Positions 14,001 to 37,887 of a DNA stretch of 64,000 nucleotides are shown here, piece after piece. How positions within the stretch are numbered: position 1 is the stretch's first letter; each line of letters starts with the position of its first letter. The DNA comes from Gammaproteobacteria bacterium (GTDB lineage Bacteria; Pseudomonadota; Gammaproteobacteria; SG8-11): the NCBI GenBank assembly GCA_024641505.1, contig JAHECY010000006.1, positions 1,512-65,511 of the forward strand. The letters are read 5' to 3'. The position numbers and the translations under genes are program-made. The notes below the pieces were generated by a model. It saw only the letters and a list, made by a program, of their open reading frames with translations. It was not told the DNA's origin and made no database searches.

Positions 14001-15046
14001 TACGGGGGCAGAATGCTTTCCAGACCGGTAATATGGGTGGTATCGGCGTCACGAGCGAAAGAGGATTCGACAAGCCCGGTAATATCGTTCGTTGTTGACA
14101 ATCCGAAGTGCTGCATGAGATCGGCTATTTTCTGGATATCTGCGTCACGCGGCGCGTAGTTGTCGAAATCGATGCGGTTTTTGGGCGTGTTCAGGGTGTA
14201 CATCACCAGATCGTAGGGCTGACCCCAGTACTTGGAGGCAATGCGTCCGGCTTCCTCCGGATTCTGCTTGGCCCATTGCAGGGCCCGGGCGGCCGCGGTC
14301 ACCATATACTTCACCACCTCCGGCTCATCCTTGATCATGCGGTTTTTGATGATCGTGAGATTGCTGAAAAATCCGGGCCACACTTCCTCGGCATATTTAA
14401 ACTTCTTTGACTCTCCGGACATCAACGTCTTAGCGGCAAACGGTTCGCCGACATAGTACGCATCCAGCGCGCCGGAAGACAATGCCGCGGCCATATCCGG
14501 TGGATTCATTTCCACGACGTTGACCTGACCGGTGAGATTGGCTTTTTCCAATTGCTCCATGATACTCAGATTATGGCCTGAAAACCGCATGGGCACGGCG
14601 ACGGTCTTGCCAATCAAGTCATTCCAGGTATTGCCGTTGAGATCCTTGCGTACCACCAGGGTACTCTCATTGCGGTTACCGACGAGTATGATCTTGACGT
14701 CTTCGCCCTGCTGTCGCAGCACAACGGACAAAGGCGCGATGATAAACGCCGCGTCGATCTGATTATTGCGCAAAGACTCGCCCATTTCCGCGAACGAAGC
14801 GAATTTCAGGGCTTTAAAACGAATGCCTTTGGTTTCCTTGCTCACCTTGTCCAGAATTGGCGCCGCCAGATTGCTGAACACGGGCATATAGCCCATGGTA
14901 ATCACTTTGCGGTCGCTGTCTTCGTTATTGACGTATTCATGCATGAAGGTGATGAAAATCAACCATGCGGTAATCGCCGCCGACAGCTTCCATACCATGG
15001 GCATTTGAGATATGGGTCTAAAATTGTCCCGTTGATTGCTATCCAT
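14000..15046 (-). CDS. ABC transporter substrate-binding protein, NitT/TauT (nitrate/sulfonate/bicarbonate, NMT1-like) family
   Basis: 348 aa with an N-terminal TM/signal (WKLSAAITAWLIFITF) and an NMT1/SsuA-like body. Alternative start at 15004. Confidence 0.75.
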   Translation of the reverse strand: MDSNQRDNFRPISQMPMVWKLSAAITAWLIFITFMHEYVNNEDSDRKVITMGYMPVFSNLAAPILDKVSKETKGIRFKALKFASFAEMGESLRNNQIDAAFIIAPLSVVLRQQGEDVKIILVGNRNESTLVVRKDLNGNTWNDLIGKTVAVPMRFSGHNLSIMEQLEKANLTGQVNVVEMNPPDMAAALSSGALDAYYVGEPFAAKTLMSGESKKFKYAEEVWPGFFSNLTIIKNRMIKDEPEVVKYMVTAAARALQWAKQNPEEAGRIASKYWGQPYDLVMYTLNTPKNRIDFDNYAPRDADIQKIADLMQHFGLSTTNDITGLVESSFARDADTTHITGLESILPP

Positions 15047-15460
15047 CTATATCGCCACATTTCGCTCGTAAATCGTTTTCTTGCACTACCCACCGGTATA
15101 GCTTCAGAACCGAGCCTGGTCCTGTCATCGGCAGATCCATTATTCCCCGCAAATGTTACCGCCACCGGCAGCTTGCGATACGCATTTCACCACCGGACTT
15201 GCCGGATTGCGCGCCGGAGTTTTTTTAATTATCGAAATCGTGGTGCGTTGTACGCCGTCCCCATTCAGCCAATGATGGGTAATGGAGATCAACAGCAGCC
15301 ATGTCGTGAGCACAACCAGCAACATGTAGCCCAAATGCTGCTGGGTTCGAGGTTGGAAGCTTGCCCGATGCTCATAATCCGGGCGTGGCTTGAATTGCGC
15401 TTTACCGGTCACCTGATTCACCGTACCTAAATCGGTACGGATACGACCAAAGCCTCTGCA

Positions 15461-16255
15461 TCAAACCGCATAACTGACCCCGAGTTTTAAAAATATATCG
15501 TCACGAATTTCCGCCAGTTCCTTGTTGGTCTCGAGATTGCGTGGCCGTTCAAACTTCATTTCATATACCGCTTTTACCTTGGTGGGTCGATCGCCCATCA
15601 CTATGATGCGATCTGCCATAATCACCGCGTCTTCGATAAAATGCGTGACCATGATCATGGTTTTACCGATATAGCTGTGGATATTGACCACTTCCTCACG
15701 GATGCGCAATTGCGTCAGATAGTCCAGGCCGGTAAACGGTTCGTCCATAAATAACATGTCGGGATTAACCACCAGCGCCCGGGCCAATTCGGCGCGCCGC
15801 TGCATACCACCGGAAAGTTGATTCGGGTAGTGATTTTCAAAGCCAGTCAATTCCACCATATCAAGAAATTCGAATACCATATGGCGTTTTTCCTGTTCAT
15901 CACTGATATGGCGCACTCCCAATTCCACGTTTTGCCACACGGTCATCCAGGGCAGCAGGCCATTGTGCTGAAACACAAAAATATGGTCGGCGCTGGGTCC
16001 TTTTACCTCTTTGCCATCGATCAGTACCCGACCGGAACTAGGTGTATCGAAACCGGCGATGATACGCAGCATGGAAGACTTGCCGCAACCGGAAGCGCCA
16101 AGCACACACACCATTTCCCCGTCCTGAAATTCCAGATTCACGTTATCGAGAACCCGCATTATTTCCCCGGGTCGTGCCGCATCTCCAGGCTGGCGTTTCA
16201 CCGACCGGCGGTTAACGTATTCCTTGGTGAGATTTTCTATTTTTACGTGCCCCAT
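15461..16255 (-). CDS. ABC transporter ATP-binding protein (NitT/TauT family)
   Basis: Walker A GASGCGKSS, signature LSGGMQRRAELARAL, Walker B LFMDEPFTGLD. Start chosen at MGHVKIENLTKEY (16255). The ORF track extends to 16297, overlapping the permease stop. Confidence 0.8.
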   Translation of the reverse strand: MGHVKIENLTKEYVNRRSVKRQPGDAARPGEIMRVLDNVNLEFQDGEMVCVLGASGCGKSSMLRIIAGFDTPSSGRVLIDGKEVKGPSADHIFVFQHNGLLPWMTVWQNVELGVRHISDEQEKRHMVFEFLDMVELTGFENHYPNQLSGGMQRRAELARALVVNPDMLFMDEPFTGLDYLTQLRIREEVVNIHSYIGKTMIMVTHFIEDAVIMADRIIVMGDRPTKVKAVYEMKFERPRNLETNKELAEIRDDIFLKLGVSYAV

Positions 16256-16275
16256 AATCCACTGCCTTGTATGCG

Positions 16276-17052
16276 CTATTTTTTTGCTTTCGCCCATTTC
16301 AGATAGTCCACGGAAGTCACCCGGATCATTATGATATCCAGCAACAAGCCGATGAGACCGATTGTAATCATGCCCACCATGACGTTATCCATGCGCAGGG
16401 CATTGCGCGCGTCGACAATGAGATAACCCAGCCCCGACTGTACCGCAATCATTTCCGCCGCCACCACCACCAGCCAGGCAATAGCCACGGTGAGACGTAT
16501 CGCGGTCACTACTTCGGGAATGATCGCCGGCACCACGATCTTGGTAATCACTTCGATACGCGAAAAATTGAAGTTGGCCGCCACCTGAAAATACATCGGG
16601 TTGATGGATTCCACCGCCACCGCGGTGGCCACCACCAGCGGAAAGAAGCTGGCGAGAAATATCAGAAATATCGCCGGTTGATCACCGATGCCGAACCAAA
16701 GCATGGCCAAGGGAATCCAGGCCAGCGGCGAAATCGGGCGCAGAAACTGGATCAGCGGGTTGATCAGGCTTTTTGCCACGGTCATGCGACCCAGCAGTAT
16801 GCCCAAAGGTATGCCCAGCATCACCGCCAGGTAAAACCCGACCGTTACCCGGTATAAGCTGGCCACGGAATGTTTGAGCAGAGAGCTGTCCTGCGCCAGA
16901 TCCAGAGCGCTTTGCATCACCACCATGGGCCCTGGAAATACCTGATGACTCCAGTCGCTATAGCGTGTGATGCCGTCCCACAGCAAAAATATCACCACGA
17001 ACGAAAGCACGGGAAACAGTATGAACGAACGCTTTAATGCTTTGCGCATCAT
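16276..17052 (-). CDS. ABC transporter permease (NitT/TauT family)
   Basis: 258-aa polytopic membrane protein with a BPD-transporter-type permease body. Lies 18 nt downstream of the ParA-like gene. Confidence 0.8.
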   Translation of the reverse strand: MMRKALKRSFILFPVLSFVVIFLLWDGITRYSDWSHQVFPGPMVVMQSALDLAQDSSLLKHSVASLYRVTVGFYLAVMLGIPLGILLGRMTVAKSLINPLIQFLRPISPLAWIPLAMLWFGIGDQPAIFLIFLASFFPLVVATAVAVESINPMYFQVAANFNFSRIEVITKIVVPAIIPEVVTAIRLTVAIAWLVVVAAEMIAVQSGLGYLIVDARNALRMDNVMVGMITIGLIGLLLDIIMIRVTSVDYLKWAKAKK

Positions 17053-17069: not shown

Positions 17070-18050
17070 CTACAACGCCAGAATTTCTTTAGCCAGGGAA
17101 AAATACTGCAATCCGGCACGGCTGCTTTTGTTGTAGTACATAGTGGGCGAGAGCACGATCTGGGACTGAGGTACATTGTCATCCTTTTCGATGATGGTCT
17201 GAAACAGACTACCGGTGAAGGCGCGATTCATCTTGGTATAGATGACTTTTGATGCCATATTGTCACGATCAAACATCGTCACCAGGATATGGGAGCGTAT
17301 ATCATGCTGGGACTTTTCCCGGATTAAATTAATCATGCTCTGAATATGATTGATACCGTTCATGGAAAGAAATTCCGCCTGAGTGCATATCGCCGCCATA
17401 TCCGAAGCCAACAGGGCGTTGAGAGTAAAAAAATCGCCGGACGGCGGCGTATCAATGAGCACGTAGTCGAAATACGGCTTCACCGGCGCCAGCATGTCGC
17501 GCAGCATATACTGAAAGTTCTCACTATTTTGTTGTTTGTTCAGCAATGTCATCTTGGTATTGGACGGTAACAGCCAGAAATAAAGACCGGTTTTCACGAT
17601 GTAGTCCGCCAGGGAATTTTCGGGATCGCTGCTGGCATCGAAAAACGAACGCGCATCACGGTAGTTCAGCAGCAGGCTGAGATTGGCTTGGATATCGAAA
17701 TCAATGACCAATACCCGTTTCTTCATCAATACCAGTGAGGTCGCCAGGTTGAGGCAGGTAGTGGTCTTGGCCACACCGCCCTTCTGGTTGCAAATTGTAA
17801 TTACTTTACAAGACCGGGCTGAATCTGACATATCCATGCCATCGATGATTACCGGCTTTTGCGCCTTGCGCACGAAGTCGGGGTTCGACGCGGCATCCGG
17901 CGCTGGCAATGATAACAATGGTTGCCGAATGGAAAACACATGGCCGCAACGACAACAGCGTGCCCGGGAAACGCGTTTTTCCAATAAATGCTCGTCGATC
18001 CGGTAACGTGTCGCGCACTCGTCACAAGTAACAATCATATGTCCATCCAA
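17070..18050 (-). CDS. ParA/MinD-family ATPase with N-terminal MJ0042-type zinc ribbon
   Basis: The N-terminus MIVTCDECATRYRIDEHLLEKRVSRARCCRCGHVF has CxxC...CxxC. It is followed by a deviant Walker A (KVITICNQKGGVAKTTTCLNLA) and a ParA/MinD body. Confidence 0.75.
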   Translation of the reverse strand: MDGHMIVTCDECATRYRIDEHLLEKRVSRARCCRCGHVFSIRQPLLSLPAPDAASNPDFVRKAQKPVIIDGMDMSDSARSCKVITICNQKGGVAKTTTCLNLATSLVLMKKRVLVIDFDIQANLSLLLNYRDARSFFDASSDPENSLADYIVKTGLYFWLLPSNTKMTLLNKQQNSENFQYMLRDMLAPVKPYFDYVLIDTPPSGDFFTLNALLASDMAAICTQAEFLSMNGINHIQSMINLIREKSQHDIRSHILVTMFDRDNMASKVIYTKMNRAFTGSLFQTIIEKDDNVPQSQIVLSPTMYYNKSSRAGLQYFSLAKEILAL

Positions 18051-18145
18051 TTTTCAGTAAAAAGTTTTAGAACATCGCACTGTGACCAATTTGTCCGCAA
18101 GCACCAACCTGGCAGGCGCCTGCGTCGCACCATGCGTGGTTGCGG

Positions 18146-19225
18146 TCAGCCTGCGGTTACCACCCGCTCCTCGCCATTGCGCTCGCCCAATACACCGGCG
18201 ATTTTTTCACTAAGTTTTAGATCACTGACCACGAAATCGACCACACCTTCTTCGATCGCGCACTGCGCCAGATTTGGATACACGCAGGTTTCGGTATTCT
18301 GTGCAATGGTGGTACCGTGCTTTTTCTTAATTTCCGAAAAACCCATTTGGCCGTCATTGCCCACGCCAGTGAGCAACACACCCACCGCATGCTGATCGAA
18401 AACGCTGGCTGCGGACATGAATAAGGCATCCAACGGCTTGTGTCGCCCCGGCCCCTTTTTCAAGCACGGCTCATTGGCTTCGTTGAGCGCAATTATCATC
18501 GGTTCCTTATAGGAACACACATAGCAGACCCCCGCTTCCAACACCATGTCTTCCTGTGCGGCTTCGACTTTCCATTGCGTATATTCGTTGAATTGCTTGA
18601 CGAAGTTAGGGAGAATTTTTGGCTCGATTTCCTGCACCACCACCGCCGCCGCCGGAAAATCCGGTGACAACTCCGACATAATACGGATTATGGTATTGGG
18701 CCCGCCGAGAGTGGTACCCAGGGTCAGCACGCCTTCCAGTGTCTGATAGCCGTAGCGTTCCGCCAAATTGGCGCGCAGATCGACTTTTTGCAGCTTTACC
18801 CTGCGTACATTGTTAATATTTTCCGCGGCGGCGATCTTCACCCGGTCAATGATCTGCTGCCCCTGGCTGTGAATGTCGGTGGAAATGGCGCCGGAAGGCT
18901 TGGGCAGAAAATCGACGACGCCCAACCGCAATGCTTCAAAAGTGATATCACCGTGGAAAAACAGTGAACTGAGCATAACGATCGGCACCGGCGACTCTAT
19001 CATAATATGACGAATCGCCTTGATGCCGTCCATCACCGGCATATCAACATCCAGGGTCACCACATGCGGTTTCAGAGCTTTGATTTTTTCCAGAGCATCG
19101 CGACCGTTACGCGCGCTGCCGACTACTTCGATCTCGGCGTCCTGTTCCAGGATATCGCGCAACGCTTTCACCATGAAGGAAGCGTCATCCACGATCAACA
19201 CTTTTATCTTATCACTCATAGTCAT
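18146..19225 (-). CDS. CheB-like protein (REC + methylesterase fold) with apparently degenerate catalytic triad
   Basis: REC domain (KVLIVDDASFM...VTLDVDMPVMDG). The esterase-domain segment LGTTLGGP aligns with E. coli IGASTGG (Ser164 to Thr). VVQEIEP aligns with ITQHMPP (His190 to Glu). GVGNDG keeps Asp286. Confidence 0.8.
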   Translation of the reverse strand: MTMSDKIKVLIVDDASFMVKALRDILEQDAEIEVVGSARNGRDALEKIKALKPHVVTLDVDMPVMDGIKAIRHIMIESPVPIVMLSSLFFHGDITFEALRLGVVDFLPKPSGAISTDIHSQGQQIIDRVKIAAAENINNVRRVKLQKVDLRANLAERYGYQTLEGVLTLGTTLGGPNTIIRIMSELSPDFPAAAVVVQEIEPKILPNFVKQFNEYTQWKVEAAQEDMVLEAGVCYVCSYKEPMIIALNEANEPCLKKGPGRHKPLDALFMSAASVFDQHAVGVLLTGVGNDGQMGFSEIKKKHGTTIAQNTETCVYPNLAQCAIEEGVVDFVVSDLKLSEKIAGVLGERNGEERVVTAG

Positions 19226-19257
19226 GTTCCCTATCTGTCAGGAGTCGATGTTGATGC

Positions 19258-22200
19258 TCAATGCACATTATCGGGCGGTGGCGCAGGCGGCAACGCCTGT
19301 TGGCGTTTCGGCCCGCGGCGAATACGGGTGCGTAGTTGCTGCGCTTGATCCCGGTGCATTTTCGCCTGTCGACCAGAAGTCATTTTTACGAGTTCATGGG
19401 CGTCGAGAATCAGGGAAATACGGCCGTCACCAACGATGGTAGCGCCGGAAAATCCGCTTTTCTCCTGCACATAGTCCGCCAGGGGTTTGATTACCACTTC
19501 TTCCTGACCGATCAATTCATCCACCACGAAACCGGTACGCGCGCCCTCGGTGTTGACAATCACCACAAATACCTTGTCTGTGTTTTCATCCGCCTTGATA
19601 CTGAACAGCTTGGAGAGATGAAAAATCGGCAGGGCATGACCGCGCAGATGAATAACTTCGACCCCCTCGACTTTTGACGTCTCGTGGCGGAAAATTCGCA
19701 CCGTTTCATCGACATTGGCCAGAGGAATGGTAAACAAGTCGCGACCGACGCGGATCATTAAGGCATGAATAATCGCCAGCGTCAGGGGAATCTTCAAGCG
19801 CATCTGGGTACGCACGCCGGGTTTGGAATCGATTTCGAGAATGCCGTTGAGTTTTTCGATATTGCGCTTGACGACATCCATGCCAACACCGCGACCCGAG
19901 GTACCGGTGACCTTTTCCGCGGTAGAAAATCCGGGCATCAGGATCAATTGCGTCAGGTCCCGGGCATTCATGCGTTCCAGTTCTTCCGGGGTATATAACC
20001 CTTTTTGCTGCGCCTTGAGCTTGATGCGTTCCGGGCTGATACCGCGGCCATCATCGGTGACTTCGATGACGATATTATTACTTTCCTGGTAGGCATTCAG
20101 GGTGAGCGTACCCGCTTCCGGCTTGCCGGCCTTGCGCCGTTCTTCACGGTTCTCCAGGCCATGATCCACGGCGTTGCGAATGATGTGAATCAACGGATCC
20201 GACAATTCCTCGACGATCATTTTGTCCAATTCCGTATCTTCGCCTTGAATCACCAGCTCCACCTTCTTGTCGGAGGTGTGCGTCAGATCGCGCACCAGGC
20301 GCGGGTAACGGTTGAAGATCTGCGAAATCGGCAGCATGCGCATCTTCATCACTCCTTCCTGGAGTTCATTGGAAGTGCGGCCCAGGGAGGCAATCGCCTC
20401 TCCAAGTCGGTAGGTAAACGTACGCAGCATTTTAATTTCTTTTTGATCGATACCGGCCACGTCCTTCAGATAATTCTGCAATACCCGCATTTCATTGGAC
20501 AGCTGGAAAAAATAGGATCGGTCCACCACCAACTCGCCGACCAGATTCATCAACGAGTCGATTTTTTCCGCATCGACCCGCATGCTTTTCTTGATCTTTT
20601 TTTCCATCGTGTCCAGAACCCGACGCTTGTCGCCGGTACCTGGGGCGGACTCAGGACGAGGCGCAGTCGGAGCTTGACCGTTACCCTTAGTCTGCTGCGT
20701 TGGCGTTTTTGCCTTGGCTTGGGCCCCGGCCACCATTTGGTCGTATACCTGGTTCAGGGTTTCCTGCTTGTTGGCGCTCGCCTCTTTTTCCATTACCGAA
20801 TCGAGAGCACCGCTGAGTTGGTTGTAAAGTTGGTTCTCAGCAACCGCCGGGGCTGCCTTCCTGCCCGTGGCCGGCGCCCGAGCCGGTACCGGTACCGTTT
20901 CAATGATTTCACCTTTGATGGCTGTGGTCGGTACATCACGCAGCTGTGGAAACATGCCATCCAGTCGCGCCAGATATTTGTTCATGAATTCCAGTGGTGC
21001 TTTCCCGCCACCGGCCCAGGCGGAACTTGCCTGCTCGATGCGCGTACGCCACTCTTCATACAACGATGCCAAATCCTGGTAACCCATGTAGTTGGCGGCG
21101 GACCAAAGACGCCCGATGGTATCGTCACACCACTGCAGATGCTGCACCTTGTCCGGCTCCTTTTGCAGCTCATTGACGGATTTCCGCAGAATACTCGCTT
21201 GCTCCCGCAAATGATGCATAAAAATGCCGAACAATTCCTGATCGTGCTCCTCCTCGTAGGAAGAACCCACCGTCTCCGTAATCGCATCCACGGATTCCAG
21301 GCTCGCTGCAGGGATCGCGGGTGATGCTGCCACCGAAAGACCGGTACTGCCATCGATGCGGTGACTGATTTTCATCACCAGATCGTCAATCGCCGACAAT
21401 TCCTGTTCGTGGATATTCAATTCATTGACCAGTTGCACGATACGATCCCGGGCATCGATCAACAAGTCGATAGTGCCGGTGCTCGAAGACATTTTACCCT
21501 GGCGTAACAGATCCAACAGATCTTCGAGGCGATGTGACAGTCGGGAAATTTTCGCCAGTCCGGTAATTTGCGAGCCACCCTTGATGTTGTGGACCGGCCG
21601 GAAAACGTCGTTAAGGAATTCAAGATTCTGGGGGTCGTCGCTCAATTGCAGTAATATGGTTTCGATTTCATCCAGGTGGTCGCCGGCTTCGATTATAAAA
21701 TCCTTGAGCAGACCCATATTGATTTCCATTTCCGGCTCCGGCTTCAGAATCACGCGTGGCTCGGGTAACTCATCAGCAGGTACCGCCGTTGACGCAGACG
21801 CCGCATCAGCCGCGGTATCGGGTTCCGCAATATCAACCCCTCCACCCACACCCATATTCATGAATATGTTCATGACATCGTCGGTGACATCCGACACAGC
21901 CGGCATCAAACCGTCTTGGTCGGCGGACACTGACGGTGCCGGAGATTCCCTACCGTTCGCGTCCATGGCTGGCTGATGAGGGGCCGTTTGCCAGGTATCC
22001 AGATCGGGAAACAATGTGGTGACACGCCGTAAATATTCGTGCATGAATTCCAGATCCGGCACTTCCCCACGCGCCACATCCTGACGTGAATCACTCAAAA
22101 TACCACGCCATTCCCCATACATGTCCACCAGATCCTGGTAACCCATATAGTTGGCCGCAGACGACAGACCCTCGACCACGGCTCCACACCATTCTAAATG

Positions 22201-22767
22201 CTGATCCAGATCGGGTTCGCTATCCTGCTGTGCCACCGCCTGCCGCAAGGTATGCACTTGTTCCCGCAGATGACTCATGAAAATCCCGAACAACTCCTGG
22301 TCGTGCTCTTCCTGATAGGTCTGCGCATCGGGCATAGCGGTTTCGGCCACGGTGGTCGCGGCGGCCAGCGGCGTATCGTTTTGGTCTTCAATCAGTACTG
22401 TGAGCTGATCCACCAGATCTTCGATATCAGATTGCTCTTCCTGAAACTCCTCCAGTTCCCGCACCAGACGCAAAATGCGATCGCGGGTTTCAATGAGCAA
22501 ATCGACGGTATCATTATCCGACTTCTTCTTTCCCTGACGCAAAATGTCCAGCAAATCTTCGAGTCGATGCGACAACCGCGACACTTTGTCCAAACCGGTG
22601 ATCTGAGACCCACCCTTGATGTTGTGCACCGGCCGGAAAATGTCATTGAGAGTGGTCAGATCATTCGGATCTTCCGCCAGCCTCAACAGCAGGACTTCTA
22701 TCTCATCCAGGTGTTCGCCTGCTTCGACAATAAAGTCGCCAAGTAATGCCAGGTTTATTTCACTCAT
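19258..22767 (-). CDS. cheA: CheA-family histidine kinase with two HPt domains (tandemly duplicated N-terminal module), dimerization, HATPase and CheW-like domains
   Basis: 1169 aa. HPt1 (FRPVHNIKGGSQITGLDKVSRLSHRLEDLLD) and a near-identical HPt2 (FRPVHNIKGGSQITGLAKISRLSHRLEDLLD). The H-box-less kinase core HIIRNAVDHGLE...DDGRGI...GRGVGMDVV. C-terminal CheW-like domain. Confidence 0.9.
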   Translation of the reverse strand: MSEINLALLGDFIVEAGEHLDEIEVLLLRLAEDPNDLTTLNDIFRPVHNIKGGSQITGLDKVSRLSHRLEDLLDILRQGKKKSDNDTVDLLIETRDRILRLVRELEEFQEEQSDIEDLVDQLTVLIEDQNDTPLAAATTVAETAMPDAQTYQEEHDQELFGIFMSHLREQVHTLRQAVAQQDSEPDLDQHLEWCGAVVEGLSSAANYMGYQDLVDMYGEWRGILSDSRQDVARGEVPDLEFMHEYLRRVTTLFPDLDTWQTAPHQPAMDANGRESPAPSVSADQDGLMPAVSDVTDDVMNIFMNMGVGGGVDIAEPDTAADAASASTAVPADELPEPRVILKPEPEMEINMGLLKDFIIEAGDHLDEIETILLQLSDDPQNLEFLNDVFRPVHNIKGGSQITGLAKISRLSHRLEDLLDLLRQGKMSSSTGTIDLLIDARDRIVQLVNELNIHEQELSAIDDLVMKISHRIDGSTGLSVAASPAIPAASLESVDAITETVGSSYEEEHDQELFGIFMHHLREQASILRKSVNELQKEPDKVQHLQWCDDTIGRLWSAANYMGYQDLASLYEEWRTRIEQASSAWAGGGKAPLEFMNKYLARLDGMFPQLRDVPTTAIKGEIIETVPVPARAPATGRKAAPAVAENQLYNQLSGALDSVMEKEASANKQETLNQVYDQMVAGAQAKAKTPTQQTKGNGQAPTAPRPESAPGTGDKRRVLDTMEKKIKKSMRVDAEKIDSLMNLVGELVVDRSYFFQLSNEMRVLQNYLKDVAGIDQKEIKMLRTFTYRLGEAIASLGRTSNELQEGVMKMRMLPISQIFNRYPRLVRDLTHTSDKKVELVIQGEDTELDKMIVEELSDPLIHIIRNAVDHGLENREERRKAGKPEAGTLTLNAYQESNNIVIEVTDDGRGISPERIKLKAQQKGLYTPEELERMNARDLTQLILMPGFSTAEKVTGTSGRGVGMDVVKRNIEKLNGILEIDSKPGVRTQMRLKIPLTLAIIHALMIRVGRDLFTIPLANVDETVRIFRHETSKVEGVEVIHLRGHALPIFHLSKLFSIKADENTDKVFVVIVNTEGARTGFVVDELIGQEEVVIKPLADYVQEKSGFSGATIVGDGRISLILDAHELVKMTSGRQAKMHRDQAQQLRTRIRRGPKRQQALPPAPPPDNVH

Positions 22768-22788
22768 TTTTTTTCCCTCAAAGCCGCC

Positions 22789-23139
22789 TCAGCTTCCCAC
22801 TAAGGCGAGAATCTGTTCGGATTTGTGTTTATTCACCAGACCAATGGCGCCGATGCGTTCCACTTCCCCGCGGTATTTATCCTCATCCATATTGGAGAGA
22901 ATCAGGATGCGCGCCTTGGCGTCTCGAGCCATGATTTCCTTAGCCGCGGTAATCCCATCCATGCCCCGCATGGTGATATCCATGGTGACCAGATCCGGGC
23001 GCAGACGCTCATACATTTCCAGTGCATCGGCGCCATTGGCCGCCTCCCCTACCACCTCATGGCCAGCATCACGCAAGGTTTTGACGATCACCTTGCGCAT
23101 CATGGTCGAGTCTTCCACCACCAGTATTCGCTTGCTCAT
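22789..23139 (-). CDS. cheY: CheY-like single-domain response regulator
   Basis: 116 aa. ILVVEDSTMMR...DLVTMDITMRGMDG...K motif set of a REC domain. Confidence 0.85.
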   Translation of the reverse strand: MSKRILVVEDSTMMRKVIVKTLRDAGHEVVGEAANGADALEMYERLRPDLVTMDITMRGMDGITAAKEIMARDAKARILILSNMDEDKYRGEVERIGAIGLVNKHKSEQILALVGS

Positions 23140-23179
23140 ATCCGCTTCCTGTAATCTTTAACCCTTATGCCCGGCTTAC

Positions 23180-23722
23180 TTACTGCACTATGGATTCTTC
23201 GCCCAGCGACAGCTCTTTGTAATTTGTTTCCTTCAACATATGGTACTCTTCGTTGAACAGGATGCGTTCGAAGCTCAGGATGATCAATAGCTTGCCGTTG
23301 ATATCGCACACCCCGTGGATGTACTGATTTTCCAGGCCCACCACAACGATATCCGGTGGCGGCTCTACTTTATCCTGCTCCACCTTCAGTACTTCCGTGA
23401 CGCGATCGACGATAAAGCCGATAACGCGTTCTTTGATGTTGAGAATCAAAATCCAGTTGCCTTCGCCGCCACCTTCCCCCATGTAAAGGTAAAGGCGCTT
23501 GCGCAAGTCGATGACCGGAATTATATCGCCGCGCAGATTGATTACCCCTTCGACAAATTCAGGCGAATTGGGCACCGCGGTAACCGGAGCCGATCGGATG
23601 ATTTCCTGAACCATCAGGATGTCGACTCCGAATTCTTCCTCATTGATCTTGAATCCCACCAATTGCATCAAGCCTTCGGCTTCGGCATCGGTCAAGGTAT
23701 CAAATCTAATTCGTTCTGCCAT
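23180..23722 (-). CDS. cheW: CheW coupling protein
   Basis: 180 aa with a CheW-like domain (EEFGVDILMVQEIIR...VINLRGDIIPVIDLR). Confidence 0.88.
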   Translation of the reverse strand: MAERIRFDTLTDAEAEGLMQLVGFKINEEEFGVDILMVQEIIRSAPVTAVPNSPEFVEGVINLRGDIIPVIDLRKRLYLYMGEGGGEGNWILILNIKERVIGFIVDRVTEVLKVEQDKVEPPPDIVVVGLENQYIHGVCDINGKLLIILSFERILFNEEYHMLKETNYKELSLGEESIVQ

Positions 23723-23812
23723 GTTGCATCTCCTGTAAAACGCCGCCGACCGGTCGCCGCCCTGTCCGGTATTCCCGGACAGGCACGGCGATTGATCGCG
23801 CCCATGCTACGC

Positions 23813-26272
23813 CTAGCTGATCTTGAACTGCGCTACCTGGCGTGCGAGAGCTTCTGACTGCTCCACCATGGTTTCCATGATGTCAGCGTTGGCGCCGGCA
23901 CCTTCCACCGTTTGCACCGCCGCTTGTCCCGATTCCTGGGACAGCTTGGTAATCGCCTTGGAACGTTGCGCCTGCAGACCGGTCATATGCTGCATTTCCT
24001 CACCGCTTCGTACTACACCTTCCATTTCATGACCGATGATGCGAGCGTTTTCATTAGCTTCCATAACCAGCGCCGAGATCTTGTTCGACGCCTGCAACAT
24101 CTTACGCAGCGAATCTTCCGCAACGGTACGACGCTTGGTATTTTCCGTAGCCATTTCACCGATTTGTTGCGCCAATGTGTTCAACTCGCGAATCAAACCC
24201 TGTACTTCAGTGGTACTGCCACTGAGGGACTCCGCCGAACGTTCGATGTCTTCGATGGAGCGCATGTTATCGCGACCGCCTTCGTCGATTTTGCGCAGCG
24301 CTTCCTGGGACTGGTCAGTCAGTTTTACCCCGTCCGCCACGTTGTTTGTGGAGTCCTTGATGAGCTGGGTGATTTCCTTGGCGGCCTCGGAAGACCGCTG
24401 GGCGAGTTTACCTACTTCATCCGCAACCACCGCGAAACCCTTACCGTGCGCACCGGCACGCGCCGCTTCTACCGCGGCGTTCAAGGCGAGCAAGTTGGTT
24501 TGTTCGGCGATTTCCGTGATTACCGAGATGATTTCCGAAATCTGTTCGGAAGATCCAGCGATGGCGCGCATACCTTCTACGGTAGCGGCCACTGCTTTCC
24601 GGCCTTCTTCCGCCGCTGCCAGCGAACCGCGACCGAACTGGGTCGCCTGTTGTACGGAACGTTGCATGGTATCCACCGCCGCCACCATTTCGTTGATAGC
24701 GCTGGTGACTCGCATTACCATCTTGCCCTGTTCCTGCGCGGACACCGCCACTTTCGCACCGGCATCACCCATTTCCGATACGCGGGACATGGTTTCGCCC
24801 GCTTCCCGGTCCTGGTTCCGTTGGGATTCGGATACGATACTCATCTTTTCCTGCAATTCGCGCAACAGCCCTGAGGATTTTTCCGCAGCGCCCTGCTGAC
24901 CACCGGCTTTTTCGTTGATCTGACCGGCGGTGGCGCCCATTTCCCCGATAACCTTTCCTGCAGTTTGGGAACGATTGAGCTCTTCCTCGGCACGCTTTCT
25001 GTTGTTGCCGGCGCGAGTCGCGGCTTCCGTGGCGTTTCTGGCGACATCACCGGCCGCGGAGTTTACCTCGACAAACGCGTTCTTGATAACATCCATCATA
25101 CCGTTGAACGATAACGACATGGCGCCGATTTCATCCTTGGATTCCACCGGCACATGAATGGTAAGGTCGCGTTTCTCGGCGATGTTCTGAATGGTGTCCG
25201 CCATCCGGATAACCGGACCCGCGATCACCCGGGTCAAGAACACAATCAATATTGCGCTGATCAGCAAGCCGGCTACCAGCAGGCCCCATTCGATGTTTTT
25301 CAAGCGTACGGTAAGAGTCGCCGCGGACGCTACGTCGTCCTGCAGCAATTTGTCCTGGCTTTCCACCAATTCAGAAAGCACCTCAACGATCGCCTTAGCG
25401 GTCGGTGCAGCGCGGGTCGCCAGCCAGAAATTGGCCAGGTTAGCTTCGGCGGAAGCCTGGATCTTAAACATCTTCTCGGGCAACGGTTCGAATTCCGCGC
25501 GTACCTGTTTGAACTGGTCAAATGCCAGTTTTTGTTCCGGTGACAGGTGCTGGTAATTATTGGCCAGGTCATTGAAACGCAGGGTATTCTTGGACCATAG
25601 ATTTTCGAAGCTGGTTTTCAAGGACTCATCTTTGGTGAGCAGGTAGGCGCGAATACTCGCCAAACCCAGACCGGTGGTACCGCGCACGTCAGCCATCATG
25701 TACAGAATGGATTTGCGTAATGGCGTACCCTCCAACTGGCCTTCCAAGTCGATCATGCGCGTGATCAACTCGGCGAGCTTGGCGGATCGCGGCTGTGCTT
25801 CTTCCGCCAGCATTTTCAGCGCCGGTTCCTGATCGACAGTGTTGGCGATGTCTTCGACTTCCTGCTGGTACTTGCGGAACAACTCCAGTTCCTTGCCGAT
25901 TTTATCAACGCGCTTGATGTTTTCCGCGTTGGTAAAATTTTTCGAGAATCCCTGCAACGCATCGAAGTTTTTGTCGATCCAGTTTTTCCAGCTCTCATCT
26001 CGTTGGGTCTTAAATTGTTCTTTACCCAAAAGCATCCAACCACGCAATGCCGCCAATGATTCGTTGACGCCGTTCAACAAGGAAAGACTGGCGCGGGCCA
26101 CCGGTGTTCGCAGTTCCGCAACCCGATTCGACAGAGTTTGCACCTCTGTTACCTCATAGATCGTTATACCTACCGCTGATACGAGCAACAATGCCATCAT
26201 GCCGAAGCCTGTGCCCAGCTTGAATGGCAGTCTCATATTAGCAAAGAGACCAAAGTTGGTATTCTTAGCCAC
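23813..26272 (-). CDS. Methyl-accepting chemotaxis protein with about 290-aa periplasmic helical sensor, HAMP and MCP signalling domain
   Basis: TM1 [17 protein letters not shown] and TM2 [21 protein letters not shown]. The highly conserved signalling tip [35 protein letters not shown]. No C-terminal NWETF-like pentapeptide. Confidence 0.9.
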
Positions 26273-26360
26273 TTTCTTTCCTCCGTTTCACCTGAATTAA
26301 GGCCAAATGCTGTGTGGTGGGCAAAAAAGCCGCTTTCACCAAGAGCGCAGGACCCGCGTT

Positions 26361-26390
26361 TCTGTTACTGTTACTGTTACTGTTACTGTT
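26361..26390. repeat. Hexanucleotide microsatellite (TGTTAC) x about 4.7
   Basis: tctgttactgttactgttactgttactgtt read directly, about 90-118 bp upstream of the MCP start codon, in the intergenic gap between the cheB-like2 and MCP genes. Confidence 0.9.
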
Positions 26391-26485
26391 TAAACTCTAA
26401 AGCCAATTTTCCGTCTGTTACTCATAATAATTTCGCATCTTGCAACCATACACAACTTCACGCCACGCGCTCTGGCAGCAATATT

Positions 26486-27589
26486 TTATTGCAAGTCGTT
26501 AATCACCTGCGCAAGTTGGCTGTCGCTTACCGTTGTTGCGTCCGGACACCAGGCGAGGGCGGCGTTGGCCATATTCTTGTACAAACAGGTTTTCAGGTCC
26601 TGCACCACGGCGCTTCCACCAACCCGGTGTATTTCCTCGAGGCCTTCGGCCCCATCACTGCCGGTGCCTGACAACACTACGCCCACGGCATTCTCGCCCA
26701 TGGCCTCAGCCACGGAAAACATCAACATGTCCACCGCACCCTTACGCGAAGCGAACGGCGCCGGTTGCACATGCAGGCGACAATTGTCGTCCGTTTGCCT
26801 ATGTACGGTCATGTAGTTACCGCCGGCGTTCAGATAGCACACCCCGGGACGCAGCAATTCATCATGCACGGCGCGCTTGACCTCGACTGCACTATAGTTG
26901 TTGAGGTAAGTGGCAAAGGCGTCAACGTACTCCTGGGCGGCGTATAAAGTAACCATATAAGCAACCTGCCGGTCAGCGCGCAAGTTGGGCACGATTTTCA
27001 GTAACGCACCATAACCACCTTCCGCGGCACCAATCGCGACGATGCGATGGCATTCCGGAAGCGACACGTCCTGTCCCATCAATTCAAGATTGGGTAGATT
27101 ACGGATATATTTGATCGCTTCCACTTCCACCACCGAGGCAAATTTCACCTTGTTACGAATTTCACCTTCCTGAGCGGAAACATCCTCGCCATTGACCGCG
27201 GATGGCTTGGCGATAAAATCCACTGCACCATAGCGCAGCGCGTCAAACGTCACCGCCGCGCCTTCCATGGTGAGGCTCGACAGCATCACCACCGGCGTCG
27301 GATAGCGAATCATGATATGTTTCAAAGCGGTGACTCCGTCCATTTCCGGCATGCGGATATCCAGCGTGATGACATCGGGCCTGTGCTCTTGCACCGCCGC
27401 CAGCGCCTCGCGGCCATTTTTGGCCACCGCCACGATTTCCACATCCTTGTCGTTCTGGAAAATACGGGTAACCGAATCCCGGAGAATCTTGGAGTCGTCC
27501 ACGATAAGCAACTTCAATACTTTACCGGTGCCACCGTCAATCGCCTCGGCAAACTCGTCTGAATGCTTTTTTACAGTGCTCATGCTCAT
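26486..27589 (-). CDS. Second CheB-like protein (REC + methylesterase fold) with apparently degenerate catalytic triad
   Basis: REC (LLIVDDSKILR...ITLDIRMPEMDG). AIGAAEGG aligns with IGASTGG (Ser to Ala). MVTLYAAQEY aligns with ITQHMPPGF (His to Tyr). SGTGSDG keeps the Asp. Start overlaps the upstream gene's stop (ATGA). Confidence 0.8.
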   Translation of the reverse strand: MSMSTVKKHSDEFAEAIDGGTGKVLKLLIVDDSKILRDSVTRIFQNDKDVEIVAVAKNGREALAAVQEHRPDVITLDIRMPEMDGVTALKHIMIRYPTPVVMLSSLTMEGAAVTFDALRYGAVDFIAKPSAVNGEDVSAQEGEIRNKVKFASVVEVEAIKYIRNLPNLELMGQDVSLPECHRIVAIGAAEGGYGALLKIVPNLRADRQVAYMVTLYAAQEYVDAFATYLNNYSAVEVKRAVHDELLRPGVCYLNAGGNYMTVHRQTDDNCRLHVQPAPFASRKGAVDMLMFSVAEAMGENAVGVVLSGTGSDGAEGLEEIHRVGGSAVVQDLKTCLYKNMANAALAWCPDATTVSDSQLAQVINDLQ

Positions 27590-28284
27590 CCTAGATATTT
27601 TTTCAGTTTTTCTTTCAAGGCCGCGGAGTCCACAGGCTTGGTCATGTACTCATCGGTACCGGACATTTTTCCTTTAAGTTTGTCAAACAACGTGTCACGA
27701 GAGGTAAGCACGATCACCGGCACATCCTGCAGACGTTCGCTTTTTTTCATGGCGGCCAGCACCTCATATCCGTCTTTTTTAGGGAGGATCAAGTCCAGCA
27801 GCACCAGATCCGGTACATCCCGACCCAACAGAGCCAAGGCCTCCTCCCCGTCCCTGGCTTCGGAAATGAAATATCCTTGATTCGCAAGTGATTCCACCAA
27901 CACCTTGCGCGCCAAACCGCTATCTTCCACAATCAAAATCTTTTTCAAGCCCATGGACGGCGACTGGTTGAAGTCCACGCCTAACTCGAGGAAGATGTCC
28001 TCGTTGCTCATGGCACCAACGGGCGCCGTCGTCACATTAGCGCTGCCCTGGGCATCGCCTTTAAAAAAGAACTTGGCACGTTCGATTTTCTTGATTTCCG
28101 CCAAGGCCGGAGCGCCACGCATATTGCGAAAGAACACATCGACGATATTGCCGGTATTCAGCGAAAAGATGACGCCATGGCCCTGATCCGTGTACATGTA
28201 CATAGCCCCGCTGTACCGTTCCTTGCACAGTTTCAGCAATGCCCTGGCGGCATCCTTGAAGGCTACAAGTTCATCTTTAGACAC
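27586..28284 (-). CDS. Response regulator with N-terminal about 110-aa uncharacterised domain and C-terminal REC domain
   Basis: The C-terminal half KILIVEDSGLARK...DLVLLDLILPKKDGYEV...TSRDT...K is a REC domain. The N-terminal domain (MSKDELVAFKDAARALLKLCKERYSGAMYMYTDQGHGVIFSL...) is not recognised. Confidence 0.7.
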   Translation of the reverse strand: MSKDELVAFKDAARALLKLCKERYSGAMYMYTDQGHGVIFSLNTGNIVDVFFRNMRGAPALAEIKKIERAKFFFKGDAQGSANVTTAPVGAMSNEDIFLELGVDFNQSPSMGLKKILIVEDSGLARKVLVESLANQGYFISEARDGEEALALLGRDVPDLVLLDLILPKKDGYEVLAAMKKSERLQDVPVIVLTSRDTLFDKLKGKMSGTDEYMTKPVDSAALKEKLKKYLG

Positions 28285-28700: not shown

Positions 28701-31025
28701 ATGCTTGAACCTAATGAAAAGGAGAGTTTGTTGTCGGATGCGGCGCACACCGACGTTAGCGAAACGCCGGAATACACCGATGTTGCCGTCGATTTAGACA
28801 ACAATGATGTTCTAGAACTGCAGAATAATTTGCAGGCCACGATCAAGGAACTTGCCGATGCCATGGATGCGGAAAATATGCAGCGACAGATGGTATTGCA
28901 GGCTGAACAACGCGACCAGGCCGAGCGCGCAATTGATGTTGAAATGTCCCACCCGCTCGATTCCGTAGAACATACTCCAAGCGCCGATTTTGAAATCCAT
29001 GACGCAGTTACCGTTTCCGCGACATCGACATCGGGGGTTACCGATAACCTGTCGCTGGATGAACTGCTGGCGGCGTTGAATATCAGCACCCTACCGCGGC
29101 CCGACGCGGTTGACGACAGCACCACCGAGACCACAAACGACATGCCGACCCAGGTACCGCGCATCGAGAACCTGTGGCAGGAACTCGGGGAAATCTGGCC
29201 GGTAATAACGCACCATCCTGAGGTGGTAACCAACATCGAGGAATTGTGGAGCAGGCTCAAGGAGGCGCACCATACTGGCACGCTGGGCACCGAACTTTCC
29301 CAGTTGTATTCTAAATTGACCGACGACGATACCGCTAACCCAGCACCGACGACCGCGCCACTTCGCAACAGTGATGAAGTTGCGGATATAGTCAGCCGTA
29401 TTCTTGCCGGAGTAAAGACCCGGGATATCATCAACGACACCGGTCCAGATGCGTCTGTTGCAGCGCCTCTCGCGAAACAGGGTACCGAGGAATTCGACGT
29501 CGACAATTTCCTGCAACGCTATGCCATGGACGCCGAACCCGCCCCGGCGGCCACCGTCGTACCCAAGGTTACTGAAAATCGCCAGAAAAAACCCAACACC
29601 GGCAACAAACTCACGATCAGTGCTGACGAGCTGGCGATACTGGAAAATATTCTGGGCGACCGCCTGGACCGTAACGCCATTGGCGCACCGGCGCTTGACC
29701 ATGACGCTGACGAAGTAAATACCGGGGGACATCCGCATTCTGACTCGCGGGAGATTGTCTCCCAGCCAAAACCAAACGGCACCGACCCGGCACCCATAAA
29801 AGACGTGGAACAGCCGGCGCGGCACAGCCGGTCGACCCATAAGTCTCCGTCGCGCAAGGCACACAAGTCAAGCGCGACCCACGCGACACCGACATCACCG
29901 GTTCCGTACCAGCCGGCACATACAGTTGCCAGTGCCGACGTCTCGGCGCTGGATACCAATGAAACTGATGACGATGCTGATAAAAAGTCCTACTGGCTGC
30001 CGCGCGTCACGGCCGCACTGGTAATTGTCGGTATTGCCTGGCTGTGGTTAAGTAGCGGTTCCGAGCAGGACCTCGTCGCCACCCAGGATGCAACCCGGGA
30101 AACCCGCAACGGCATGTCGCCGACACAACTTGCGGAAAATGAAAATTCAAAAACCCTCGCGGAAAGTAAAGCCGAGTACCGCCGGGCTGCGGAACAAGAG
30201 CATGCGCGCGTCGTCAGCGCCGCTGCTGCCCGCAAGACAGTCCCGAACGACAACCGTCCGATGATGCCAGGGGCGGGCAATGACACTGAAGCCAAGCGGC
30301 CCAGGGAGCTCAGTACTACAGAAGTCGCCAGCCAAATCCCGGGTACCGCAGGCGGTACCGGTGCGCCATCTGGCGTCACTGGAGACCACGTGCAAGCCCC
30401 TCCGGCCGTACAAAGTCTCGCCACCGGCTCGGTGCCCGTCGTGCCCGCGAATTCTTCGGAGCTGACGCAAAATACCGCCTACAACACGCTCACCGAAACC
30501 TTGAACCTATCCACGCAGAACATTCAAAATCTGGTCGATGGTTCCCTGGATCGTTTGCGTACCAGCACCCAAAATGGTTTGCAGGATCTTTCCCAACGTG
30601 TCAATCGGCTGGAAGACGCTATTGGCAAATTACACGCCGCCATAGAGTCCCTGTTGCACCAGAATAATGAGGCGCGCGCCGACCAAAACCGGAGTTTATC
30701 AGCATTGGGAGAGCGACTTGATGGTTTGGAAACCGCGCAAAAAAAGGCCTTTAATGCCAGAATCGAACGCGACAAGGAAGGCGTGACCATCGTGCTGACG
30801 GAACCACGCGCTGGCCGCACCGGCGAAAGTGGCGCCGACGGTACCTATGATGTGATCGTGCACACCGTGGTCAAAGGCGACACCCTGTGGGATATCGCCG
30901 CCAAGTATATCAACGATCCGTTTCGTTATCCGGAACTGGCCAAACTGAGCAAAATCAAGAACCCGGACCGTATCTTCCCCGGAGACCGGGTGCGTATCGT
31001 CCGACGTTATGTCACTGAACCGTAA
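28701..31025 (+). CDS. Large acidic single-pass membrane protein with C-terminal periplasmic coiled coil + LysM domain (HubP/FimV-like, reversed domain order)
   Basis: 774 aa. The N-terminal roughly 430 aa is highly acidic, low complexity, and has no signal peptide. One TM (YWLPRVTAALVIVGIAWLWLSS) is preceded by KK/R. C-terminal LysM (YDVIVHTVVKGDTLWDIAAKYINDPFRYPELAKLSKIKNPDRIFPGDRVRI). The minus ORF 28679-29506 is an antisense shadow. Confidence 0.6.
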   Translation: MLEPNEKESLLSDAAHTDVSETPEYTDVAVDLDNNDVLELQNNLQATIKELADAMDAENMQRQMVLQAEQRDQAERAIDVEMSHPLDSVEHTPSADFEIHDAVTVSATSTSGVTDNLSLDELLAALNISTLPRPDAVDDSTTETTNDMPTQVPRIENLWQELGEIWPVITHHPEVVTNIEELWSRLKEAHHTGTLGTELSQLYSKLTDDDTANPAPTTAPLRNSDEVADIVSRILAGVKTRDIINDTGPDASVAAPLAKQGTEEFDVDNFLQRYAMDAEPAPAATVVPKVTENRQKKPNTGNKLTISADELAILENILGDRLDRNAIGAPALDHDADEVNTGGHPHSDSREIVSQPKPNGTDPAPIKDVEQPARHSRSTHKSPSRKAHKSSATHATPTSPVPYQPAHTVASADVSALDTNETDDDADKKSYWLPRVTAALVIVGIAWLWLSSGSEQDLVATQDATRETRNGMSPTQLAENENSKTLAESKAEYRRAAEQEHARVVSAAAARKTVPNDNRPMMPGAGNDTEAKRPRELSTTEVASQIPGTAGGTGAPSGVTGDHVQAPPAVQSLATGSVPVVPANSSELTQNTAYNTLTETLNLSTQNIQNLVDGSLDRLRTSTQNGLQDLSQRVNRLEDAIGKLHAAIESLLHQNNEARADQNRSLSALGERLDGLETAQKKAFNARIERDKEGVTIVLTEPRAGRTGESGADGTYDVIVHTVVKGDTLWDIAAKYINDPFRYPELAKLSKIKNPDRIFPGDRVRIVRRYVTEP

Positions 31026-31205
31026 GGTGCGTACTACGCACCCTACGCAGATGCGAGAGGGGTGCGAAAATGCTTATGAACCAACCGGAAGGGCCGTAAG
31101 GTGCGTACTACGCACCGTTTTGCTACGCACCATCTCGCCTTTTTAATGTAGCAGCGCCGATCAAGATCCAGATCTAAAACCGGTGCGTAATACGCACCCT
31201 ACAAA
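31022..31205. repeat. Three REP palindrome copies
   Basis: gtaaggtgcgtactacgcaccctac at 31022 overlaps the LysM gene stop. Further copies lie at about 31088 and 31183. Confidence 0.8.
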
Positions 31206-31270
31206 CCGTGCCGAACATCCGGCCCGTCCTTTGCATACATAACGCAGGATCAACAACTTATTTTACAATA

Positions 31271-31849
31271 ATGAAACAAAAGCTCCAGACCCGTCTTGTT
31301 AACTATTTCATGCTGATCGCCGTCGCCGCCATGCTTATTGGCGTGGAATTCTATTTTGAAATGAGCCGCACCGAGGTCACCAGCGAAATCTGCACAATCG
31401 CCGAACAACAGGCGGCCGGCGCTGACGGTGCCCTGCCCCTGGACAATTTACGCAATAAGATCGTGATCATGTTCGGGGTTTTGACCATTGTCGTGGCCAT
31501 TGTACTCACCATGTTCATCCGCAATATCACCGCTCCTTTACAAAAAATGGCGGATGTCGCGGCGCGCATCAACGAAGGTGATCTGAGCCTGAGCGTACCC
31601 ATCGAAACCCATGATGAAATCGGTCAGGTGGGCGATGCTATCAACGAACTCACCAGCAATTTGCAGGAAGTGGCCACCATGACCAGTACCACCGCCCAGG
31701 ATACCCTGGGTCAGATCGAACGTCTGCTGGAGGCCACACGCAAGGGTGACCAGATACCGGAAACACAAGCCAGGGAGATTCGCGCCAGTCTGCAATCACT
31801 GATTGAGTTTGTGGATTCCTTCAAACTGCTGAAAACGGATATCGCCTGA
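31271..31849 (+). CDS. Small membrane protein consisting of two TM helices and a HAMP domain, no recognisable output domain
   Basis: Start at MKQKLQTRLVNYFMLIAVAAMLIG. Second TM VIMFGVLTIVVAIVLTMFI. HAMP motif NITAPLQKMADVAARINEGDLSLSVPIETHDEIGQVGDAINELTSNL. Confidence 0.55.
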   Translation: MKQKLQTRLVNYFMLIAVAAMLIGVEFYFEMSRTEVTSEICTIAEQQAAGADGALPLDNLRNKIVIMFGVLTIVVAIVLTMFIRNITAPLQKMADVAARINEGDLSLSVPIETHDEIGQVGDAINELTSNLQEVATMTSTTAQDTLGQIERLLEATRKGDQIPETQAREIRASLQSLIEFVDSFKLLKTDIA

Positions 31850-31852
31850 ACC

Positions 31853-35617: not shown

Positions 35618-35623
35618 GGCGCC

Positions 35624-37840: not shown

Positions 37841-37887
37841 GCGGTTGATAAGCACGGAGCAGTAGCACCACACCGTGCTGATTAGGA

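Follow-up and report, generated by a model that had tools for sequence, protein, structure and literature searches.

A gammaproteobacterial chemosensory operon with two conserved CheB-like protein families that lack the catalytic Ser-His pair

The 64-kb stretch of DNA considered here (the window; part of contig JAHECY010000006.1 of assembly GCA_024641505.1, from a member of the Gammaproteobacteria) carries a chemosensory operon at positions 28284-17070, in which all the genes lie on the minus strand and point in the same direction. In order of transcription it encodes a response regulator (the first regulator below), a CheB-like protein (A), a transmembrane methyl-accepting chemotaxis protein (MCP), CheW, CheY, CheA, a second CheB-like protein (B) and a ParA/MinD-type ATPase, with intergenic distances of -4 to 213 bp. 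Methylation of receptors by CheR and their demethylation by CheB are regarded as a near-universal mechanism of chemosensory adaptation. By alignment, A and B are predicted to keep the fold of CheB and its conserved pocket loops without the Ser-His pair. That two ancient copies of CheB are kept without their catalytic residues, at a locus with no receptor-methylating enzyme, suggests that the CheB fold may have been given a non-enzymatic regulatory job. Our composite reading, to which we assign a probability of about one half, is that this is a cassette of the type-IV-pilus kind which would have lost adaptation by methylation, and in which the two CheB paralogs would be non-catalytic regulators controlled by phosphorylation.

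CheB fold without the Ser-His pair

How far do A and B depart from a genuine CheB? CheB-like A (367 amino acids, 26486-27589, minus strand) and CheB-like B (359 amino acids, 18146-19225, minus strand) both consist of a REC domain and a CheB_methylest domain, as had been noticed in a first-pass annotation of the window, and they pass the fold test of Pfam PF01339 with 129.7 and 135.4 bits, respectively, against a cut-off of 24. The NCBIfam model of CheB itself (NF001965, cut-off 293 bits) is not reached by either of them (279.4 bits for A and 271.3 for B). In phmmer comparisons, Salmonella CheB (1A2O) and 6YMZ can be aligned with either protein over its whole length (E values of 1e-43 to 1e-49), free of gaps near the catalytic motifs. 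The triad of the reference 1A2O is Ser164/His190/Asp286, embedded in the motifs GASTGG, TQHMP and GMGNDG. The corresponding motifs are GAAEGG, TLYAA and GTGSDG in A, giving Ala189/Tyr216/Asp312, and GTTLGG, VQEIE and GVGNDG in B, giving Thr172/Glu199/Asp291. The triad Asp and the GxGxDG loop are kept in both proteins, and no Ser or His is found at the first two catalytic positions of either one against 1A2O or 6YMZ. As a control, both proteins and samples of their families were put into a single MAFFT alignment with 82 CheBs taken from unrelated che loci, and the identical columns hold S/H/D in 75 of these 82. The first-pass annotation had read these triads as Ala/Tyr/Asp and Thr/Glu/Asp, and both assignments stand. 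The REC domains look ordinary: the acidic DD pair, the phospho-acceptor Asp (D77 in A and D59 in B), the Ser/Thr and the Lys are all present. An exact-sequence look-up with B returned no record.

Two conserved families

The substitutions are not peculiar to the window. Each of A and B belongs to a family of at least 120 clusters, and the best 120 homologs of each were examined together with the window protein (n = 121). Homologs of A are 50-85% identical to it, one of them being the identical sequence from the source contig, and where their sources are named they come mostly from uncultured Gammaproteobacteria, including Chromatiales, Competibacteraceae and Polarisedimenticolaceae; homologs of B are 61-90% identical to it. 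The triads of family A are A/Y/D in 82 members, S/Y/D in 15, A/H/D in 15 and G/Y/D in 6, with three other variants, so that the nucleophile position can be A, S, G, E or H, while the EGGY that follows it is invariant and the whole GAAEGGY nearly so. Family B has T/E/D in 89 members, T/D/D in 19, T/E/E in 12 and S/E/D in one, and its GTTLGG motif is found in 115 of the 121. Ser and His occur together in none of the 121 members of family A and in none of the 121 of family B. Since both families are conserved throughout and neither contains the pair, the substitutions are fixed rather than a sign of decay, and decaying pseudogenes can be dismissed for the same reason.

It is to be noted where the conservation lies. 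Averaged over columns, conservation in the C-terminal domains comes to 0.66-0.67, which equals that of the REC domain in family A and falls below that of the REC domain in family B (0.84 against 0.67). The best conserved C-terminal segments are the old active-site loops, GAAEGGY, GTTLGGP and GxGxDG, and because of this, together with the high conservation of the domain as a whole, the pocket probably remains under selection for some retained function. The methylesterase domains of A and B share 26% identity with each other, and either of them shares 25-28% with canonical CheBs; by these comparisons A and B are best described as two old, separate orthologous families. They may not be alone. Among the 150 representatives of 50%-identity clusters nearest to B, the triad is S/H/D in 103 and degenerate in about 45 (A-type, B-type or other), from which it follows that current annotations as CheB probably hide many non-enzymes. 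Our literature search, whose limited coverage cannot prove absence, turned up no account of CheB paralogs without the triad, nor of the present cassette.

The cassette in other genomes

All the eight genes are found in the same order in L002-L004, L005, L089/L090 and L091/L092, contigs of uncultured Gammaproteobacteria (the numbers are our handles for loci). Relative to the window proteins, identities reach 42-60% for the first regulator, 53-57% for A, 54-60% for the MCP, 61-74% for CheW, 61-78% for CheY, 46-62% for CheA, 60-75% for B and 44-55% for the ATPase. In Candidatus Competibacter (L085-L088) the cassette has no ParA and its CheA has a single Hpt domain, and a further contig (L006) is partial and ends inside the MCP gene. 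When a genome collection was scanned with the family A alignment, the REC pattern dominated the result; only L005 and L006 proved to be true orthologs, and the remaining 78 loci, all of the ordinary che type, went on to serve as controls and to supply CheR sequences.

Related arrangements are seen outside the Gammaproteobacteria. Two contigs of metagenome-assembled genomes (MAGs) of Desulfobacteraceae (L013 and L018) encode a divergent, degenerate CheB-like protein of 488-608 amino acids, then a B-type protein and then a zinc-ribbon ParA. The B-type proteins are 55% identical to B, with the triads S/E/D and N/E/D, and the ParA proteins are 42-43% identical to that of the window; a CheA was seen in L013 only. 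In another locus, from Desulfobacterales (L040), three degenerate CheB-like proteins adjoin CheY and CheA. Judging from these three clusters, degenerate CheB-like proteins extend more broadly than the gammaproteobacterial cassette.

Receptor and methylation machinery

If the two CheB-like proteins do not demethylate, is there anything in the window to methylate or to be methylated? In the large open reading frames examined, Pfam scans revealed no CheR, CheD, CheC, CheX or CheZ, and a six-frame motif scan of the whole window found neither CheR nor CheD. A hidden Markov model built from 16 CheRs detected no CheR either in the window or at the orthologous loci, while for 36 of 49 ordinary CheB loci the same model finds one no more than 10 kb away. 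The statement of the first-pass annotation that CheR and CheD are lacking thus holds for the 64-kb window.

The MCP (819 amino acids, 23813-26272, minus strand; 4HB_MCP_1, HAMP and MCPsignal domains) also deviates. Its sequence contains no match to the methylation consensus [ASTG]2-x2-[EQ]2-x2-[ASTG]2 and its orthologs contain zero or one, whereas 46 ordinary MCPs have 3.6 matches on average and at least one in 42 cases. The signalling domains of six ortholog MCPs align without gaps over about 440 residues, about 210 on each side of the hairpin tip, by which we estimate an unusually long predicted hairpin of roughly 60 heptads; outside the universally conserved tip region, these six have no conserved E/Q pairs. 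The C-terminus reads ...VAQFKIS and is not a pentapeptide tether, as had been pointed out earlier. The sensor domains vary, with PilJ in L091, dCache in other orthologs and 4HB in the window. The Candidatus Competibacter MCP (L085, 3149-6400) carries a C-terminal extension ending in ...STNWQAG, which faintly recalls an NWETF-type tether with its final aromatic residue missing. Fixed losses of the triads, a locus without CheR and a receptor with no consensus site give support to the non-methylating pathway that the first-pass annotation had suggested. A and B resemble canonical CheB of Salmonella (1A2O) and E. coli in having REC, linker and methylesterase fold with the triad Asp and GxGxDG, and they differ in the replaced Ser and His, in scores below the NCBIfam cut-off, in lacking a CheR partner at the locus and in a receptor without methylation consensus or pentapeptide.

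Might B nevertheless be an enzyme, using a Thr-Glu/Asp-Asp triad to hydrolyse or deamidate the receptor or another substrate, with a CheR encoded elsewhere that acts on non-consensus sites? In sedolisins, Ser-Glu-Asp takes the place of Ser-His-Asp. The three positions of family B are very strictly kept (T in 120, E/D in 121 and D/E in 121 of the 121), the oxyanion-type loop around the site, GTTLGGP, is all but invariant, and the genome beyond the window could encode a CheR. We consider this explanation unlikely, since CheR is missing from about nine independent loci, to be compared with its presence near 36 of the 49 ordinary ones, the distal helices of the receptor have no conserved E/Q pairs, and a Thr nucleophile in the CheB fold was not found in the literature searched; to our knowledge, it is without precedent. 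The partner family argues in the same direction. As its nucleophile position varies among A, S, G, E and H, at least A should not be an enzyme of the Thr-triad type.

Kinase and receivers

The kinase core seems to be in order. CheA (1169 amino acids, 19258-22767, minus strand) is composed of two Hpt domains, H-kinase_dim, HATPase_c and CheW and has no REC domain; its His48 and His393 each lie in a VHNIKGG motif, and it has kept N, G1, F and G2 boxes intact. CheW (180 amino acids, 23180-23722, minus strand) scores 120.9 bits with Pfam CheW, and CheY (116 amino acids, 22789-23139, minus strand) is a single Pfam REC domain that has DD, D54 and the Ser, with NKH where KP is usual. The MCP, CheY, CheW and two-Hpt CheA core described in the first-pass annotation is therefore confirmed by the Pfam assignments, and MCP, CheW and CheA together apparently make up a complete and active kinase core, as far as the domains can tell. 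CheA contains an internal tandem duplication, in which residues 2-299 and 347-659 are 53% identical and each copy contains an Hpt domain with its His followed by a degenerate, His-less Hpt-like domain; the segment between the two Hpt domains matches Hpt weakly (E 0.025). The number of copies in orthologs ranges from one (Competibacter, 807 amino acids) to two (1137-1293 amino acids). Among multi-Hpt CheAs, those with His-less Hpt-like domains belong in 93% to the alternative cellular function (ACF) or type IV pilus (Tfp) class, and such kinases usually have a C-terminal REC (PMC10782961; figures of 93% and 90%). Faint precomputed matches of ortholog CheAs to FimL_C were not reproduced by hmmscan (E up to 0.1) and were discarded.

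Four REC domains (those of the first regulator, CheY, A and B) face this one kinase, and the acidic pocket, the phospho-acceptor Asp and the Ser/Thr are kept in all four. Since these pockets are intact, the role of A and B as phospho-acceptors, also proposed in the first-pass annotation, is plausible. One could then go further and regard A and B as nothing other than phosphate sinks, whose RECs drain phosphate from CheA while the C-terminal domains are functionless remnants. Extra CheYs drain phosphate in this manner in Sinorhizobium and Rhodobacter, and the intact REC active sites, the four receivers for a single kinase and the stronger conservation of the REC in family B would all suit such a role. 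A remnant, however, would be expected to decay or to be deleted, while the C-terminal domains here are full length, 50-60% identical across orders and phyla, and keep their pocket motifs; besides, the operon already has a separate single-domain CheY. That A and B are sinks only is thus improbable.

Relation to type IV pili

Which kind of output does the cassette serve? The likely output of the pathway is the first regulator (232 amino acids, 27586-28284, minus strand), whose REC domain at residues 116-227 stands behind an N-terminal region of about 110 residues without a Pfam match. This region contains a domain of about 100 residues with a confidently predicted alpha-beta3-alpha-beta fold, for which no solved homolog was found, and in the window protein no meaningful Pfam match, DUF4388 included, appears up to an E value of 10. 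Across the regulator family, DUF4388/PATAN is the second commonest family after REC, with sub-threshold matches in 13 of 39 members (best E 0.013), and the match of the L091 ortholog to DUF4388 (E 0.0037) is sub-threshold as well. PATAN-REC regulators of the PatA type are paired with REC-only regulators in cyanobacterial Tax systems, where PATAN binds PilB1 and PilC (bioRxiv 10.1101/2021.06.11.447907). Many homologs of the first regulator are named PilG by JGI. Its conserved REC tail is LTSRDxLFDKxKGxxxGxxxYxTKP and resembles the tail of PilG; a PDB search for PilG/PilH-like receivers was uninformative, the best hits being PleD and OmpR-type receivers. Further hints come from the surroundings. 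The sensor domain of the L091 MCP is of the PilJ family (47.9 bits; cut-off 26.6), a PilZ gene adjoins the cassette in L085, and in the window pilS, pilR, a pilin gene, pilB, pilC and pilD are located at 33278-43386, 5-15 kb from the operon. They form part of a block on the plus strand (33278-44895) that starts 5 kb from the chemosensory operon and has the classical gammaproteobacterial order of pilS (6TM_PilS histidine kinase), pilR (sigma-54 activator), pilin gene (N_methyl), pilB, pilC, pilD, coaE and zapD. Several independent lines, each of them weak, probably point to the type-IV-pilus class.

Although the first-pass annotation could name no described architecture for the operon, its backbone does resemble pathways of this class. 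Like Pil-Chp of P. aeruginosa (pilG-pilH-pilI-pilJ-pilK-chpA-chpB-chpC), the cassette has two response regulators, an MCP, a CheW and a multi-Hpt CheA with degenerate Hpt-like domains, followed directly by a gene of the CheB family, and the PilJ sensor of the ortholog MCP, the PilG-like naming of the regulator and the nearby pil genes add to the likeness. B sits at the position of chpB. While B has lost Ser and His, ChpB is a real methylesterase that demethylates PilJ and opposes PilK (PMC12129077). The cassette also departs from Pil-Chp by having no PilK (CheR) at the locus, a second triad-less CheB-like protein behind the first regulator, a CheA that ends without a REC, an additional domain at the N-terminus of the regulator, and ParA and an ATP-binding cassette (ABC) transporter as attachments. 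The cyanobacterial Tax/Pix systems, whose output is the pilus motor, have one PATAN-REC regulator, to which the first regulator may correspond, and share with the cassette a REC-only regulator, MCP, CheW and CheA (bioRxiv 10.1101/2021.06.11.447907). In contrast to them, the PATAN match of the cassette is sub-threshold, the domain is short (about 100 residues) and the alpha-clip insertion is missing; they themselves have photoreceptors as receptors and no CheB-like proteins at all. We know of no CheR or CheB in the Tax/Pix systems, and some pathways of the type-IV-pilus class are already known to do without CheR and CheB. What is new here is therefore not a methylation-free pathway of this kind as such but its combination of two conserved families of pseudo-methylesterases with a zinc-ribbon ParA and the linkage to an ABC transporter. 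The first-pass annotation had passed over four features: the PATAN-like domain of the first regulator, the ATPase of the ParA type, the ABC transporter conserved downstream and the pil genes close by.

ParA-type ATPase and ABC transporter

The last gene of the operon (326 amino acids, 17070-18050, minus strand; true start probably the ATG at 18038) encodes a ParA/MinD-type ATPase with an N-terminal zinc ribbon of the MJ0042 type. It matches AAA_31 (134 bits), CbiA, MipZ, ParA and Zn_ribbon_4 in Pfam as well as TIGR02098, and has the deviant Walker A motif KGGVAKT. The ATPase follows B in six lineages (L002, L005, L089, L091, L013 and L018) and is missing in Competibacter L085. The array-positioning ParA-like ATPases ParC of Vibrio, which works with ParP, and PpfA of Rhodobacter are likewise encoded inside a che operon, directly after cheB. 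The cassette protein differs from ParC and PpfA by its zinc ribbon, by its absence from the Competibacter version and by the lack of a ParP-like partner, the only CheW-domain proteins of the operon being CheW and CheA.

Only 17 bp behind the ATPase gene, a NitT/TauT ABC transporter is encoded on the same strand (14000-17052, minus): a SaoP/TauC-like permease (16276-17052), an ATPase (15461-16297) and an SsuA/TauA-like binding protein (14000-15046). The permease gene lies directly downstream in every orthologous locus that reaches far enough (L002, L005, L085 and L091), which makes it possible, on gene order, that the transporter belongs to the system. The genes for its ATPase and binding protein are 414 bp apart in the window and overlap in L085. 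A terminator-like hairpin at 13999-13983 is a consensus match only, in a scan that was not above chance, and promoter scans likewise gave nothing above chance.

Does the pathway then concern motility at all? It might instead be one of the 'alternative cellular function' kind, whose output would be the NitT/TauT transporter or something else and whose effectors would be the CheB-like proteins or ParA. The constant company of the transporter would fit this, as would the occurrence of the cassette in Candidatus Competibacter MAGs and the fact that pil genes are not conserved neighbours. On the other side stand the PilG-like, PATAN-like regulator, the PilJ sensor in an ortholog and the pil genes of the window, and a domain linked to transport is missing from all the chemosensory proteins, so that such a pathway has a low probability in our view.

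Proposed working of the cassette

In the type-IV-pilus reading, a signal received by the MCP would change the autophosphorylation of CheA. Phosphate would then pass to the PATAN-like first regulator, which might act on the pilus motor as PatA-type regulators do by binding PilB1 and PilC, and to CheY, which may serve as an antagonist or as a sink, like PilH. Phosphorylated A and B would bind the receptor or the kinase through the old substrate cleft, without hydrolysis, and the result could be a reversible, non-covalent feedback comparable in its logic to CheV or to the binding of CheD in Bacillus, while the ParA-type ATPase would position the array. In Bacillus subtilis, a phosphorylatable or receptor-binding accessory protein (CheV, or CheC/CheD) does feed back without covalent modification. 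The likeness is one of logic only, as the folds are unrelated and those proteins coexist with CheR and CheB.

Several observations weigh against this scheme. The near-invariant Thr/Glu/Asp of B is what would also be expected of a catalytic site with altered chemistry. The PATAN assignment stays below threshold and the regulator of the window itself has no DUF4388 match; the sensor of the window MCP is 4HB and not PilJ; and CheA lacks the C-terminal REC that is typical of multi-Hpt kinases of the Tfp and ACF classes. The pil genes are not adjacent to the cassette in L002, L089 or L091. Finally, the search for CheR reaches the window and the orthologous loci only, and a cheR elsewhere in the genome is possible.

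What would follow if the scheme were right? The cassette keeps two CheB-derived proteins under purifying selection although the Ser-His pair, a local CheR and the receptor consensus are gone. Should the binding of A and B to receptors or kinase depend on phosphorylation, no earlier pseudoenzyme would be known as a component of a chemosensory array, and adaptation that needs no covalent modification could be studied on a tractable model. The bolder idea, that the CheB fold was recruited twice as a phosphorylation-gated module for binding receptor or kinase, by which chemosensory arrays would have a fully non-covalent mechanism of adaptation or polarity in place of methylation by CheR and CheB, or else that family B is a CheB-fold hydrolase with Thr-Glu-Asp, a kind not described before, we hold to be doubtful. 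In either case, A and B would stand for a class of accessory proteins of chemosensory pathways that is widespread in uncultured Gammaproteobacteria and Desulfobacterota but has so far gone undescribed.

Other genes of the window

Divergent from the operon, on the plus strand at 28701-32608, lie genes for a 774-residue protein, a 213-residue membrane protein with HAMP only and a member of the TauE/SafE sulfite-exporter family. The first of them (28701-31025) is a LysM protein; an identity with FimV/HubP was considered and rejected, as it has only a C-terminal LysM and does not match the FimV model. The trio flanks the cassette in L002 and not in L089 or L091, and because it is not a conserved neighbour in these two the LysM protein was left out of the system. 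Beyond the pil block, the minus strand at 45262-63691 encodes a NUDIX/thiamine-phosphate synthase fusion, argJ, secA, an M23 peptidase, lpxC, ftsZ, ftsA, ftsQ, ddl and murB, with further large open reading frames beyond murB at 58535-63691. From these housekeeping genes, the window is taken to be a part of the chromosomal core and not a mobile element. On the other side of the transporter, a gene on the plus strand (11114-12817) encodes a membrane protein with HAMP and a class III adenylate/guanylate cyclase domain, and an antisense open reading frame of 480 codons (11447-12889) is probably spurious because it overlaps the cyclase gene and has no Pfam match. Farther on, at 3441-10325 on the minus strand, a MoxR AAA ATPase, DUF58, VWA, VWA-TPR and BatD-like proteins are encoded by an operon resembling those of Bat-type aerotolerance, whose G+C content is 61-65% against 51-55% in the adjacent 10-30 kb.

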